Source of the DNA: Escherichia coli 042
Lineage (GTDB): Bacteria > Pseudomonadota > Gammaproteobacteria > Enterobacterales > Enterobacteriaceae
Direction: 5' to 3' (one strand)
Assembly (NCBI RefSeq): GCF_000027125.1
Contig: NC_017626.1
Length of the DNA stretch: 64,000 bases
Below, one piece after another: positions 4,691 through 16,433 of this stretch. Each line of letters starts with the position of its first letter. The stretch's first letter is position 1. A program made the position numbers and the translations under genes. Below the pieces are notes generated by a model. The model saw nothing but the letters and a program-made list of their open reading frames with translations, ran no database searches and had not been told where the DNA came from.

Positions 4691-6330
4691 TCACTCACTC
4701 TCCTGCAAGTTTGCAGAATATCATCCGCAGCCTGGTAATACTTCGTCTCAACGCCAGTTAATCCCAATAGCGTGGAGAATAAATTATCTTGTGAATAGTG
4801 TTGCGTTTGCGCCTGTTTTTGCAGGCAGTTCTGGTCAACCTGATACCGTTTTTGATAATCCTCCGACAGCCACAGCAGCATCGGCACCTGTTTTTGGCTA
4901 TCCGGGGCGATGGCATAAGGCAGACCGTGCAGATAGATGCCATTTTCACCTAACGACTCACCGTGGTCAGAAAGATAAACCAGGCTGGTGGTGAATTTAT
5001 CCTGATGTTCTTTCAGCAGATTAATCGCTTTATCAACAATATAGTCGACGTAAACCAGCGTGTTGTCGTAAGTGTTCACCAGTTGCTCTTTGGTACAGGT
5101 CTGGATCTCGTTAGTGTCGCAGGTTGGGGTAAATTTCCTGAACTGCGGCGGATAGCGGTTGTAATAGGTCGGACCGTGGCTGCCGATGGTGTGTAAGACA
5201 ATCACGCCATCACCCTGCAGGTTATTGATGTACTCTTCCAGCCCGTGGAACAGCACTTCGTCATAGCATTCGCCGTTGATGCACTGACCAGGCAGATTCA
5301 GCGCGGTGACGTTCTGGTGAGGCACGCGGTCGCAGGCACCTTTACAGCCGCCATCGTTGTCATTCCACAGCACGTTGATGCCCGCTCGCTGAATGATATC
5401 CAGCACGCCTTCCTGGTGCTGTGCCAGCTCTTCTTTGTAGTGCTCACGCGGCATATCCGAGAACATGCACGGTACTGAAACTGCCGTTGCCGTGCCGCAA
5501 GATGCGGTATTAGGGAAATAGACCACGTTATCTTTTGCCAGCCGCGGGTTAGTTTCACGCGGATAGCCATTGAGGGAGAAGTTCTCCGCCCGCGAGGTTT
5601 CGCCGACAATCAGGATGGTCAAATTTTTACGTTTCTCTTTCTGCATTAATGGGTTGCGGTGCGCGTCTTCACCAATTCGCACCAGCGGCAGATTTGCCAG
5701 TCGCTGATGGGAGTACCATGACCAGCTGGCAACAATGCTGTTAGAGGGGCTTAAGGATTTCACCAGCTCTTTGTTGTTGCGGAACAATGAGGCGTAGTCT
5801 TTATAAAACAGTGCGGCGACCAGCAAAATCAGCAGTACAGACACCAGAATATTGGCTCCACGGAAAAGAACACTGCGCAGGCGCGAGGTGGCAGGTTTGA
5901 TTTTAATCCAGCAGGCAATCAGCGCAGCAAGCACGCCGCTGAATCCCAGCGTTAATAACATTTGCGGCGTCATCAACGCATAACTTTCTGCCGGAGTGGT
6001 ATCAATAATATTGGCAATCATCGAGCGGTCGATGACGATGCCGTAAGTCATTATGAAATATTGTGCAGCCGCGCCGACCAGAATAAACAGGCAGGCCAGC
6101 GGTCGATTAAGCCATAAGAAAGAGCTTAGTGTCAGGACAATATTAATCACGCTGAAGGCGACGACTGGCATCGACAAGAAAACCAGTACGTTATGCAGCG
6201 AGTCCAGCGGCAGCGCCTGCAACACCTGTTTAAAAAAGGCAATATTCAGGCAGATAGAGATATAAAAAGCGGCCAACAATAGCCAGGCGAGTAAATTCAA
6301 AGAGGGTCTTTTTAGTAGGCGCTTCAACAT
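4687..6330 (-). CDS. eptA: EptA/PmrC lipid A phosphoethanolamine transferase
   Basis: ORF 4687-6375. The K-12 N-terminus [18 protein letters not shown]... corresponds to the ATG at 6330 (547 aa). N-terminal TM bundle plus sulfatase-type periplasmic domain. Confidence 0.95.
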
Positions 6331-11470: not shown

Positions 11471-12379
11471 TTAGCCGGGAAACGTCTGGCGGCGCTGTTG
11501 GCTAAGTTTGCGGTATTGTTGCGGCGACATGCCGACATATTTGCCGAACGTGCTGTAAAAACGACTACTTGAACGAAAGCCTGCCGTCAGGGCAATATCG
11601 AGAATACTTTTATCGGTATCGCTCAGTAACGCGCGAACGTGGTTGATGCGCATCGCGGTTATGTACTGTTTCATCGTCAATTGCATGACCCGCTGGAATA
11701 TCCCCATTGCATAGTTGGCGTTAAGTTTGACGTGCTCAGCCACATCGTTGATGGTCAGCGCCTGATCATAGTTTTCGGCAATAAAGCCCAGCATCTGGCT
11801 AACATAAAATTGCGCATGGCGCGAGACGCTGTTTTTGTGTGTGCGCGAGGTTTTATTGACCAGAATCGGTTCCCAGCCAGAGAGGCTAAATCGCTTGAGC
11901 ATCAGGCCAATTTCATCAATGGCGAGCTGGCGAATTTGCTCGTTCGGACTGTTCAATTCCTGCTGCCAGCGGCGCACTTCAAACGGGCTAAGTTGCTGTG
12001 TGGCCAGTGATTTGATCACCATGCCGTGAGTGACGTGGTTAATCAGGTCTTTATCCAGCGGCCAGGAGAGAAACAGATGCATCGGCAGATTAAAAATCGC
12101 CATGCTCTGACAGGTTCCTGTATCTGTTAGTTGGTGCGGTGTACAGGCCCAGAACAGCGTGATATGACCCTGATTGATATTCACTTTTTCATTGTTGATC
12201 AGGTATTCCACATCGCCATCGAAAGGCACATTCACTTCGACCTGGCCATGCCAGTGGCTGGTGGGCATGATATGCGGTGCGCGAAACTCAATCTCCATCC
12301 GCTGGTATTCCGAATACAGCGACAGCGGGCTGCGGGTCTGTTTTTCGTCGCTGCTGCACATAAACGTATCTGTATTCAT
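11471..12379 (-). CDS. melR: MelR AraC-family melibiose operon activator
   Basis: 302 aa, MNTDTFMCSSDEKQTRSPLSLYSEYQRMEIEF..., divergent from melA. Confidence 0.97.
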   Translation of the reverse strand: MNTDTFMCSSDEKQTRSPLSLYSEYQRMEIEFRAPHIMPTSHWHGQVEVNVPFDGDVEYLINNEKVNINQGHITLFWACTPHQLTDTGTCQSMAIFNLPMHLFLSWPLDKDLINHVTHGMVIKSLATQQLSPFEVRRWQQELNSPNEQIRQLAIDEIGLMLKRFSLSGWEPILVNKTSRTHKNSVSRHAQFYVSQMLGFIAENYDQALTINDVAEHVKLNANYAMGIFQRVMQLTMKQYITAMRINHVRALLSDTDKSILDIALTAGFRSSSRFYSTFGKYVGMSPQQYRKLSQQRRQTFPG

Positions 12380-12528
12380 GGATGGCTCTCTTTCCTGGAA
12401 TATCAGAATTATGGCAGGAGTGAGGGAGGATGACTGCGAGTGGGAGCACGGTTTTCACCCTCTTCCCACAGCGGCGAGGGGAGCGTCCGAGCATCATGAG
12501 GCCGAAAACTCTGCTTTTCAGGTAACTT

Positions 12529-12584
12529 ATTCCCATAAACTCAGATTTATTGATGCTTCACGTAGGATCTGAGTTTATGGGAAT
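12529..12584. promoter_or_regulatory. MelR operator sites 1 and 2 of the melAB promoter
   Basis: Two 18-bp inverted copies, attcccataaactcagat (12529-12546) and atctgagtttatgggaat (12567-12584). Their centres are 38 bp apart, matching the published Site 1 (-100.5) / Site 2 (-62.5) spacing. Confidence 0.65.
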
Positions 12585-12661
12585 GCTCAACCTGGAAGCC
12601 GGAGGTTTTCTGCAGATTCGCCTGCCATGATGAAGTTATTCAAGCAAGCCAGGAGATCTGC

Positions 12662-14017
12662 ATGATGTCTGCACCCAAAATTACATTTATCGGCGCTGGT
12701 TCGACGATTTTCGTTAAAAATATTCTTGGTGATGTGTTCCATCGCGAGGCGCTGAAAACGGCGCATATTGCCCTGATGGACATTGATCCCACCCGCCTGG
12801 AAGAGTCGCATATTGTGGTGCGCAAGCTGATGGATTCAGCAGGGGCCAGCGGCAAAATCACCTGCCACACCCAACAGAAAGAAGCCTTACAGGATGCCGA
12901 TTTTGTCGTGGTGGCATTTCAGATTGGCGGTTATGAACCTTGCACGGTGACTGATTTCGAGGTCTGTAAGCGGCATGGTCTGGAACAAACCATTGCCGAT
13001 ACGTTGGGGCCGGGCGGTATTATGCGCGCGCTACGTACCATTCCGCATCTGTGGCAAATTTGCGAGGACATGACGGAAGTCTGCCCCGATGCCACCATGC
13101 TCAACTACGTTAACCCAATGGCGATGAATACCTGGGCGATGTATGCCCGCTATCCGCATATCAAACAGGTAGGGCTGTGCCATTCGGTGCAGGGAACGGC
13201 GGAAGAGCTGGCGCGTGACCTCAATATCGACCCGGCTACGCTGCGTTACCGTTGCGCAGGTATCAACCATATGGCGTTTTACCTGGAACTGGAGCGCAAA
13301 ACCGCCGACGGCAGTTACGTGAATCTCTACCCGGAACTGCTGGCGGCTTATGAAGCAGGGCAGGCACCGAAGCCGAATATTCATGGCAATACTCGCTGCC
13401 AGAATATTGTGCGCTATGAAATGTTCAAAAAGCTGGGCTACTTCGTCACGGAATCGTCAGAACATTTTGCTGAGTACACACCGTGGTTTATTAAGCCAGG
13501 TCGTGAGGATTTGATTGAGCGTTATAAAGTACCGCTGGATGAGTACCCGAAACGCTGCGTCGAGCAGCTGGCGAACTGGCATAAAGAGCTGGAGGAGTAT
13601 AAAAACGCCTCCCGGATTGATATTAAACCGTCACGGGAATATGCCAGCACAATCATGAACGCTATCTGGACTGGCGAGCCGAGTGTGATTTACGGCAACG
13701 TCCGTAACGATGTTTTGATTGATAACCTGCCACAAGGATGTTGCGTGGAAGTAGCCTGTCTGGTTGATGCTAATGGCATTCAGCCGACCAAAGTCGGTAC
13801 GCTACCTTCGCATCTGGCCGCTCTGATGCAAACCAACATCAACGTACAGACGCTGCTGACCGAAGCCATTCTTACGGAAAATCGCGACCGTGTTTACCAC
13901 GCCGCGATGATGGACCCGCATACTGCCGCCGTGCTGGGCATTGACGAAATATATGCTCTTGTTGACGACCTGATTGCTGCCCACGGCGACTGGCTGCCAG
14001 GCTGGTTGCACCGCTAA
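12662..14017 (+). CDS. melA: MelA alpha-galactosidase (GH4, NAD/Mn dependent)
   Basis: 451 aa, MMSAPKITFIGAGSTIFVKNILGD...GDWLPGWLHR*; full length as in K-12. Confidence 0.97.
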   Translation: MMSAPKITFIGAGSTIFVKNILGDVFHREALKTAHIALMDIDPTRLEESHIVVRKLMDSAGASGKITCHTQQKEALQDADFVVVAFQIGGYEPCTVTDFEVCKRHGLEQTIADTLGPGGIMRALRTIPHLWQICEDMTEVCPDATMLNYVNPMAMNTWAMYARYPHIKQVGLCHSVQGTAEELARDLNIDPATLRYRCAGINHMAFYLELERKTADGSYVNLYPELLAAYEAGQAPKPNIHGNTRCQNIVRYEMFKKLGYFVTESSEHFAEYTPWFIKPGREDLIERYKVPLDEYPKRCVEQLANWHKELEEYKNASRIDIKPSREYASTIMNAIWTGEPSVIYGNVRNDVLIDNLPQGCCVEVACLVDANGIQPTKVGTLPSHLAALMQTNINVQTLLTEAILTENRDRVYHAAMMDPHTAAVLGIDEIYALVDDLIAAHGDWLPGWLHR

Positions 14018-14664
14018 GGGGTTATCGCTTCCGGCGCTCTGGTTATCAAGCCAAAGCGCCGTAGCTGGCGGCAATGCAAGCGAGCGAGGAATATCACCGT
14101 CGTTAATGCGCCAAGCAGCGCGCAGAACATATCGGATTGCGTGTCCCACTGGTCGCCCTGGGTGCCGAGAAAATCATCCGCTCCCTGACCCATTGCCAGC
14201 GCCGCCCACCACTCGATTAATTCATACATCGCGCTTATCGCCAGCGCCACGCAACAGACCAGAAACGCCACCATTTTACGTCCGCGAACGTACATCCCGC
14301 GCACAAGGATCTCACGTGCCACCAGTGCAGGCACCAGCCCCTGGAAAAAATGCCCCAGCTTGTCATACGGATTACGGCTCAACCCCAGCCATTCCTGCAC
14401 CTCAAAACCAACGGGGACTTTCGCGTAGGTGTATTGTCCGCCGACCATCAGGATGATGGCGTGAAAGAAAATGAGCGTATAGAGCAGCGGCGTTAACGGA
14501 TAACGTCTGGCGGTGGCAAGCAGTAGCGGCACGACAATAATCACCGGTGTCACTTCCATCAGCCAGGTGAGTTTGTCATGGGCCGAAATGCCGGTATAAA
14601 TCAGGATTAACGTTAGCGCCAGTGCGCCGGTGTTAAGAATTAACGGCTTGAGTGTGCGGGTCAT
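14014..14664 (-). CDS. yjdF: YjdF inner-membrane protein (DUF2238), 3' end altered at a deletion junction
   Basis: 216 aa, MTRTLKPLILNTGALALTLILIYTG...; multi-TM. As I recall, K-12 YjdF is about 209 aa. Here the tail ...RRFGLIT-RAPEAITP* runs into melA, and the two stop codons overlap (14014-14017). Confidence 0.85.
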   Translation of the reverse strand: MTRTLKPLILNTGALALTLILIYTGISAHDKLTWLMEVTPVIIVVPLLLATARRYPLTPLLYTLIFFHAIILMVGGQYTYAKVPVGFEVQEWLGLSRNPYDKLGHFFQGLVPALVAREILVRGMYVRGRKMVAFLVCCVALAISAMYELIEWWAALAMGQGADDFLGTQGDQWDTQSDMFCALLGALTTVIFLARLHCRQLRRFGLITRAPEAITP

Positions 14665-14750
14665 GGTGAGTTCGCAAGTCAGGGAAAATACTGACTATTC
14701 ACCAGCAAGCGTGAAATTACAATCGTAAAAGAGGTGGCCCAGGGGGATCA

Positions 14751-14770
14751 CCTGGCAGCATGCTGCCAGG
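14751..14770 (-). terminator. Perfect 20-bp palindrome downstream of fumB (possible terminator or stabiliser)
   Basis: cctggcagca|tgctgccagg lies 17 nt downstream of the fumB stop. No clear T-run follows, so function is uncertain. Confidence 0.3.
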
Positions 14771-14786
14771 CGCTGGGCCGAAGAGG

Positions 14787-16433
14787 TTACTTAGTGCAGT
14801 TCGCGCACTGTTTGTTGACGATTTGCTGGAAGAAGTCGTTACCTTTGTCATCGACCAGGATAAACGCCGGGAAATCTTCTACTTCGATTTTCCAGATAGC
14901 TTCCATACCCAGCTCTGGATAAGCGACGCATTCCAGATGCTTGATGCTCTGCTGCGCCAGTACCGCCGCCGGACCGCCGATGCTACCGAGGTAGAAGCCG
15001 CCGTGTTTATGACACGCGTCGGTAACCTGCTGACTGCGGTTACCTTTCGCCAGCATGATCATGCTGCCGCCGTGGGATTGCAGCAGATCCACGTAGGAGT
15101 CCATACGACCTGCGGTAGTTGGGCCAAGTGAACCTGATGGATAACCGGCAGGGGTTTTCGCCGGACCCGCGTAGTAGATCGGGTGATCTTTGATGTACTG
15201 CGGAAGTTCTTTACCGGCGTCAATCAGCTCTTTCAGCTTGGCGTGTGCAATATCTCGACCCACAATAATGGTGCCGGTGAGCGACAAACGAGTGGAAACC
15301 GGATATTGCGAAAGCTGGGCGAGGATCTCTTTCATCGGGCGGTTAAGGTCGACCTTCACCGCTTCGCCTTCACCGGCCTGACGCAGTTCTTGTGGAATGT
15401 ACTGGCCTGGATTGTGTTCCAGTTTTTCGATCCAGATACCTTCGCGGTTGATTTTCGCTTTAATGTTACGGTCAGCGGAGCAGGAGACGCCCATGCCTAC
15501 CGGGCAGGATGCGCCGTGACGTGGCAGACGGATAACGCGAATGTCGTGCGCGAAGTATTTACCGCCAAACTGCGCGCCAAGACCGAGTTTCTGGGCCTCT
15601 TCCAGCAGTTCCTGTTCCAGCTGGACATCGCGGAACGCCTGACCATGTTCGTTCCCTTCCGTCGGCAGCTCATCATAATAGTGAGCGCTTGCTAACTTGA
15701 CGGTTTTCAGGTTGGTTTCCGCAGACGTACCGCCAATCACAAACGCGATATGGTACGGCGGGCAGGCTGCCGTACCGAGGGTACGCATTTTCTCAACGAG
15801 GAAGTTTTTCAGTTTGCCGGGAGTCAGCAGAGCTTTGGTTTCCTGGTAGAGATAGGTTTTGTTGGCAGAGCCGCCGCCTTTAGCGACACAGAGGAATTTG
15901 TACTCATCGCCATCTACCGCGTACAGGTCGATTTGCGCAGGCAGGTTAGTGCCGGTGTTGACCTCTTTGTACATGTCCAGCGCCGCATTCTGTGAATAGC
16001 GCAGGTTATCTTCGATATAGGTGTTATAGACGCCTTTCGACAGCGCTTCTTCATCACCGCCGCCGGTCCACACGCGCTGACCTTTTTTACCGACGATGAT
16101 CGCGGTGCCGGTGTCCTGGCAGGTCGGCAGCACGCCTTTGGCGGCGATTTCGGAGTTTCTTAAGAATTGCAGCGCCACGTACTTGTCGTTTTCGCTGGCT
16201 TCTGGATCTTGAAGAATAGCCGCGACCTGTTTCTGGTGTGCCGGGCGGAGCATGAAAGAAGCGTCGTGAAAGGCTTGCTGCGCCAGCAGAGTCAGGGCTT
16301 CTGGTTCCACTTTCAGGATGGTTTCACCGTCGAAGTCGGCAACGCTAACGTAATCGGAAGTGAGTAGATAGTATTCGGTATTGTCTTTCCCCATCGGGAA
16401 AGGTGCCTGGTAGATAAAGGGTTTGTTTGACAT
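14787..16433 (-). CDS. fumB: FumB class I (Fe-S) anaerobic fumarate hydratase
   Basis: 548 aa, [31 protein letters not shown]..., directly downstream of dcuB as in K-12. Confidence 0.97.

Follow-up and report, generated by a model that had tools for sequence, protein, structure and literature searches.

The closest described system to the locus considered here is melR-melAB-yjdF of Escherichia coli K-12 MG1655 (b4118-b4121). In that strain melA is followed by a 102-nt spacer with a hairpin, then by melB, which encodes the 473-aa melibiose:cation symporter MelB. A 138-nt spacer containing a repetitive extragenic palindromic (REP) element comes next, and then yjdF, whose product has 209 aa. LacY also supports the growth of K-12 on melibiose at 42 C. 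We examined the mel locus in a 64,000-nt stretch of DNA from E. coli 042 (contig NC_017626.1), referred to below as the window. The order adiA-melR-melA...yjdF-fumB-dcuB is that of K-12, the flanks are 97-99% identical, and melR, the promoter region and melA are intact. Unlike K-12, the window has neither the two spacers nor melB, and its YjdF is longer. We argue that the window very probably carries a common and ancient melB-null allele of the Escherichia mel locus.

The scenario we favor is as follows. The ancestral layout would have been melR-melA-melB-yjdF, which Kluyvera and some Citrobacter have kept. In Escherichia, melB and both of its flanking spacers would have been lost long ago in a deletion that left about 20 nt. 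This would have fused yjdF to an 8-codon tail whose stop overlaps the stop of melA. The allele would predate the splits between E. coli, E. ruysiae, E. whittamii and E. albertii, or would have crossed them very early. The locus would still work as a MelR-regulated alpha-galactosidase gene, and melibiose and other alpha-galactosides would enter the cell by some other permease, LacY foremost.

The melA-yjdF junction

In an alignment to MG1655 the match runs through the melA stop (window 13850-14017) and resumes at 14038, at the codon before the K-12 yjdF stop. Between these points 1,665 bp of K-12 are swapped for the 20-mer GGGGTTATCGCTTCCGGCGC at 14018-14037. This stretch of K-12 runs from the 102-nt melA-melB spacer through melB and the 138-nt REP-bearing spacer to the yjdF stop. 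A tblastn search of the whole 64-kb window with K-12 MelB found no match (best E = 5.9), and the window thus has no melB downstream of melA as a K-12-type melAB operon would. An initial annotation, made from the DNA letters alone, had proposed that melB and both intergenic regions were gone, and the alignment and the tblastn search agree with it. It had also read the two stops correctly. melA and yjdF converge tail to tail with a 4-nt overlap, the melA TAA lying at 14015-14017 and the complement of the yjdF TAG at 14014-14016. The 7 extra codons it saw in yjdF are real as well. YjdF goes from 209 aa in K-12 (ending GLITG before the stop) to 216 aa in the window (ending GLITRAPEAITP before the stop), with the new tail RAPEAITP.

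The 20-nt filler is possibly a remnant of the melA-melB intergenic hairpin, to judge from its position and from the letters TTCCGGCGC that it shares with the 3' arm of that hairpin. This positional match to the hairpin arm is suggestive, without statistical support. The filler, with its context, was compared with both strands of the 1,665-bp K-12 segment, and the highest scores, 10 and 9, came from unrelated sites in melB and the REP spacer. The filler is identical in strains C9 and NT1F34, has 1 difference in 536, ATCC 25922 and the type strain, and has 0-1 in other melB-less E. coli. In the other Escherichia species 3-4 of the 20 positions differ, as read off the alignment.

Two routes to this junction were considered and rejected. 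A scar of a deletion mediated by an insertion sequence (IS) or by REP elements should show an IS end, a REP remnant or a target-site duplication, and the junction has none of these. A search of 14000-14060 for repeats in direct or inverted orientation, IS ends and target duplications found only the junction hairpin described below. Neither the REP spacer nor any IS matches the filler significantly. Microhomology that might account for a single-step deletion was sought too, but the TTAT(T)CCGG repeats of K-12 would predict another product.

Distribution within E. coli

Of 5,426 complete E. coli genomes, 1,263 (~23%) match a 1.3-kb probe over the junction without a break, and 1,259 match a 100-nt junction probe. 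K-12 melB has any match at all in 4,136 of the 5,426. Since the counts for the junction and for melB are nearly complementary, we argue that melB was not relocated. The initial annotation had allowed that its deletion might turn out to be the ancestral state of a large lineage with melB placed elsewhere. The first half of this comes close to what is found, but the complementary counts speak against the second half.

Among the complete genomes surveyed here, the named carriers are mostly strains of phylogroup B2. They include 536, O25b:H4-ST131 (sequence type 131) strain MB1341, ATCC 25922 and the type strain ATCC 11775 (= DSM 30083), all of which we take to be B2. Their mel loci have the same 4-nt overlap and the same yjdF length of 651 nt as the window, with a single difference in the filler. 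The Prokaryotic Genome Annotation Pipeline (PGAP) annotates a 1,356-nt melA and a 651-nt yjdF with a 4-nt overlap in NT1F34, 536, EC42405, C9 and ATCC 11775. Over 1,200 complete genomes already have the allele called by this NCBI pipeline. ATCC 25922, a reference strain in wide use, shares the junction; its yjdF (locus L089, 3037-3679) is annotated as a frameshifted pseudogene, whereas melA and melR are intact. When 536 serves as the query, identity is at least 99% in about 317 genomes and 98.0-98.3% in a large block to which the O25b:H4-ST131 strain belongs; the rest are at 96.8-97.5%. The melB-less junction appears to be mainly, though not solely, a B2 allele. Phylogroup B2 has been reported as lacking, or being negatively associated with, the melibiose pathway (PMC7314097; PMC5996543 Table 1). 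The melB-null mel allele is widespread and already known, and its link to B2 is already published.

The copy in the window sits on a non-B2, K-12-like haplotype whose closest matches are C9 and NT1F34, at 98.4-98.9%. Its divergence from B2 is 7-9% over the 3' 300 nt of yjdF and reaches ~15% in the melR-melA spacer. Because the flanks in the window are non-B2 and K-12-like, the deletion allele is on a recombinant background here.

Two side observations concern the variability of the locus. The 3' 300 nt of yjdF (window 14038-14337) are a hot spot of divergence from B2, the 5' half of the gene being only ~1.5% different, and yjdF is the most diverse gene of the locus among melB+ strains too (up to 5.6%). 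The mel locus has also been inactivated in other ways. melB is split by the IS5-like ISEc35 or by IS1 in 3090, EC-107 and HH194M, and melA is split by ISApl1 in SC516.

Other Escherichia and Citrobacter

The species survey used YjdF as the query and one genome per species. It listed 80 loci; E. fergusonii, E. marmotae and clade I are not among them. An abutting yjdF and melA, a 216-aa YjdF and a similar tail are found in E. whittamii, E. ruysiae, Escherichia sp. E1V33 and the divergent 'E. coli' SCPM-O-B-8794. The tail is RAPEAITP in E. whittamii and SCPM-O-B-8794, exactly as in the window, RAPEATTP in E1V33 and KAPDAITS in E. ruysiae. Beside the junction these lineages diverge at the species level, by 6-8% in the last 456 nt of melA and by 7-11% in the 3' 300 nt of yjdF. 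Divergence is as high in the more distant fumB. Since the sequence next to the junction is as different as one expects between species, recent introgression of the junction between them is argued against, perhaps with the exception of E1V33, which looks mosaic.

E. albertii has a more reduced form of the locus. Its yjdF-adiA junction (locus L012, 5565-5964) keeps 34 nt of the melA 3' end and a YjdF tail, RAPEALNL, just as one would expect if it descended from the junction in the window. It differs in that these 34 nt are joined to the 3' end of melR and the adiA spacer, and the rest of melA and nearly all of melR (corresponding to window 11482-13983) are gone. Read from these sequences, the E. 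albertii scar is a second deletion upon the same melB-less junction.

The polarity at the family level comes from genera outside Escherichia. K-12, Citrobacter amalonaticus, C. braakii, C. portucalensis and Kluyvera have the melB+ layout in common, with a conserved hairpin after melA, a 209-aa YjdF and a yjdF end of ...ccggataa. That melB+ Citrobacter and Kluyvera share these K-12-type features supports melB+ as the ancestral state of the family, which makes the junction a genuine product of deletion.

melB is also missing from C. youngae, C. murliniae, Citrobacter sp. Cu233 and Citrobacter sp. wls619 (loci L014, L015, L017 and L022, ~5630-5690). As in the window, melA and melR are intact, melA is under purifying selection (dN/dS, the ratio of nonsynonymous to synonymous divergence, is 0.045) and yjdF converges on melA. 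In contrast to the window there is a 54-nt spacer with a REP-like hairpin between the stops, and YjdF has 210 aa and ends in ...SAN, ...IAN or ...ATN. From these differences the loss of melB in Citrobacter was apparently independent of the loss in Escherichia. C. pasteurii (L016) has only fragments of melA, and mel genes are absent altogether from C. werkmanii and Citrobacter sp. ANG330.

Direction of change within Escherichia

The junction may also be read in the opposite direction within the genus. The melB-less junction could be ancestral to Escherichia, from before the E. albertii split, and the window would then simply have retained it. The melB of about three quarters of E. coli would be a low-diversity segment of 1.67 kb, brought back into the species or swept through it by homologous recombination, and melA and melR would have survived in the meantime on substrate supplied by LacY. 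We regard this scenario as tentative and give it a rather low probability, both for the ancestry of the junction and for the later spread of melB.

The evidence in its favor is of two kinds. The junction occurs in five other Escherichia species-level lineages if the scar of E. albertii is counted. The other kind of evidence is the diversity of melB itself. Seven diverse melB+ genomes were picked from the low-identity end of the melB matches (L001 5268-6791 against L010 and L091-L095). Their mean pairwise difference is 0.72% in melB and 0 in the 102 nt of the melA-melB spacer, compared with 1.88% in melA, 2.99% in yjdF and 1.97% in fumB. Between K-12 and Escherichia sp. MOD1-EC7003 divergence is 0-0.6% over the spacer and melB and rises to 3.1-4.3% in melA and yjdF on either side, the shift falling at the indel boundaries. 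Of the 4,136 genomes that match melB, 4,127 are at least 99% identical to K-12, whereas only 2,926 genomes reach this level in melA and 1,637 in yjdF. That melB is less diverse than its flanks hints at a secondary spread.

There are several reasons not to go further than this. No donor of the segment has been identified. The features that K-12 shares with Citrobacter and Kluyvera fit vertical descent equally well. FDAARGOS_946 and 135, which have the most divergent melB, differ from K-12 by 0.9-1.0% in melA and 0.8% in melB, or about equally. A local selective sweep or stronger constraint on melB would also lower its diversity, and a sweep or plain vertical retention is as possible as a secondary spread. 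The species sample also consists of a single genome for each.

Selection and melibiose use without MelB

One can imagine that melA and melR are non-functional leftovers that have been becoming pseudogenes since melB was lost. It fits such a scenario that both genes were later lost in E. albertii, C. pasteurii, C. werkmanii and Citrobacter sp. ANG330. However, we consider it very unlikely for the Escherichia allele. melA and melR are full length. Between the melB-less Escherichia lineages dN/dS is 0.012-0.029 for melA and 0.013-0.045 for melR, at a synonymous divergence (dS) of 0.08-0.52. Between melB+ species it is 0.024-0.030, which is the same. melA is kept in 5,398 of the 5,426 E. coli genomes (99.5%). 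The low dN/dS, the intact genes and the prevalence of melA therefore argue that selection has long kept MelA and MelR without MelB.

The phenotypes of melB-less strains also speak against leftovers. DSM 30083T is melibiose-positive by Biolog, by API 20E and by growth on M9 (PMC4334874), and ATCC 25922 is MEL+ (melibiose-positive) on API 20E (PMC11546641 Table S2). The melB-less locus was confirmed here in both strains. The initial annotation had pictured an alpha-galactosidase stranded without a transporter, and neither the purifying selection on melA and melR nor these two reports bear that picture out. LacY catalyses melibiose transport (PMC4308713). Melibiose likely enters melB-less strains through another permease, and LacY is probably the best candidate. 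LacY-dependent use of melibiose in E. coli, of which K-12 at 42 C is the classical case, would explain how a cell that has MelA but no working MelB still uses the sugar.

The following points weigh against the scenario we favor. The lac operon is outside the 64 kb visible here, and other alpha-galactoside permeases are also possible. In genome-scale models most B2 strains are predicted not to grow on melibiose (PMC5996543). Set beside the two melibiose-positive reports, this is either a conflict or else a gap in the models. That melB is absent from elsewhere in ATCC 11775 and ATCC 25922 is argued only by the near-complementary counts. The filler aligns with the old intergenic hairpin no better than it does by chance with other parts of the deleted segment. 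Within E. coli both directions remain, a loss that was retained and a melB that was regained later.

As we read it, the locus is a clean natural example of how a transporter can be lost while selection keeps the enzyme and the regulator across species splits. Given the melibiose-positive reports for melB-less reference strains, the presence or absence of melB is no proxy for the melibiose phenotype, and metabolic models in which uptake is gated by MelB alone may mispredict B2 strains.

A side observation on E. marmotae concerns the same phenotype. The results for o-nitrophenyl-beta-D-galactopyranoside (ONPG) and MEL co-vary in this species. Its type strain is negative for both, and 25 of 25 listed isolates are positive for both (PMC11546641 Table S2). 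This would fit lac-dependent use of melibiose.

A recent deletion specific to this genome, which the initial annotation implied, is hardly credible. It would be the natural conclusion if K-12 were the only reference, since that reference has melB. However, the identical junction is in the 1,263 complete genomes and it recurs in other Escherichia species, so it is a standing allele, and the junction allele itself has gathered substitutions between lineages. An assembly or sequencing artefact that collapsed melB has next to no chance of being right, as the junction recurs base for base in many independent complete assemblies and the PGAP open reading frames are intact on both sides.

Transcription at the junction

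A GC-rich inverted repeat spans the junction (Table 1) and would form a hairpin on both transcripts. The 100-nt context folds at -39.5 kcal/mol (z = -2.37). There is no U-tract beside the hairpin on either strand. A terminator scan made no call at the junction; it gave 5 weak matches in the region, all of them within coding sequence, against 2.6 +/- 1.5 from shuffled sequences. An intrinsic bidirectional terminator would combine a GC-rich hairpin with a U-tract on each strand, and the junction has only the former. On this point the initial annotation holds, as it had supposed that no terminator separates the convergent genes, and the scan found no canonical one. For lack of a canonical terminator between melA and yjdF it is plausible that their transcripts read into each other, and from the sequence they probably do. 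The junction hairpin may act as a 3' end or as a stabiliser. Its arms are kept between species, but this says little because they also encode residues of YjdF.

Layout of the locus and the rest of the window

Table 1. Features of the mel locus and its surroundings, in window coordinates
Feature	Position	Strand	Description
melR	11471..12379	-	AraC-family activator of the mel promoter; intact, 302 aa; from the list of open reading frames; Pfam HTH_AraC and HTH_18
melR-melA divergent regulatory region	12380..12661		282 nt; length equal to K-12
melA	12662..14017	+	Glycoside hydrolase family 4 (GH4) alpha-galactosidase; intact, 451 aa (1,356 nt), end GDWLPGWLHR, TAA 14015-14017
yjdF	14014..14664	-	DUF2238 inner-membrane protein; 216 aa (651 nt); TAG stop is + strand CTA 14014-14016
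Junction-derived YjdF tail codons	14017..14040	-	RAPEAITP; replace the K-12 ending of G and stop
20-nt filler	14018..14037		Replaces 1,665 bp of K-12; shares TTCCGGCGC with the 3' arm of the melA-melB intergenic hairpin
GC-rich inverted repeat CGGCGCTCTGG / CCAAAGCGCCG	14032..14061		11-nt arms 14032-14042 and 14051-14061; spans the junction; hairpin on both transcripts
fumB	14787..16433	-	Directly after yjdF, then dcuB; adiA and melR precede melA

Set against its K-12 counterpart, melR has 4 differences in 909 nt, every one synonymous, and melA is 98.7% identical to K-12 melA at the nucleotide level with 3 nonsynonymous differences. By its sequence MelA would be a complete enzyme of its family, as both Glyco_hydro_4 (E = 8e-82) and Glyco_hydro_4C (4e-58) match over their full length in Pfam. 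A K-12-type mel regulon requires a MelR-dependent promoter region and melR, and the window has both. In the alignment the promoter-proximal repeats (TTCCCATAAACTCAGAT... and ...ATCTGAGTTTATGGGAA) are kept across the melB-less lineages, and the central spacer alone varies. We presume from the K-12 mel promoter that these repeats are the MelR sites.

The central part of the melR-melA spacer (window 12440-12560) is hypervariable, while the promoter repeats on its two sides and both genes show only 1-3% difference. Over the whole spacer the window differs from 536, ATCC 25922 and ATCC 11775 at 41-42 of 282 nt and from E. ruysiae at 77 of 281, deletions included. An Rfam scan of 12300-14900 gave only sub-threshold matches resembling plant miRNAs, at 12498-12615 (21-27 bits against gathering scores above 100). 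They were rejected as chance matches that arise because the mel promoter contains the long inverted repeat CCCATAAACTCAGAT...ATCTGAGTTTATGGG.

The window is colinear with K-12 as far as 31682, in or beside the tRNA-Phe gene pheU (K-12 4362573). The remainder, 31683-64000, is a pheU-linked island that K-12 lacks, with Ag43 (agn43), a type VI secretion cluster and CP4-like genes. Islands of 99.9-100% identity to it are found in HSP60, UPEC69, HH35 and enteroaggregative E. coli (EAEC) 55989, and only 45 genomes cover at least 80% of it.

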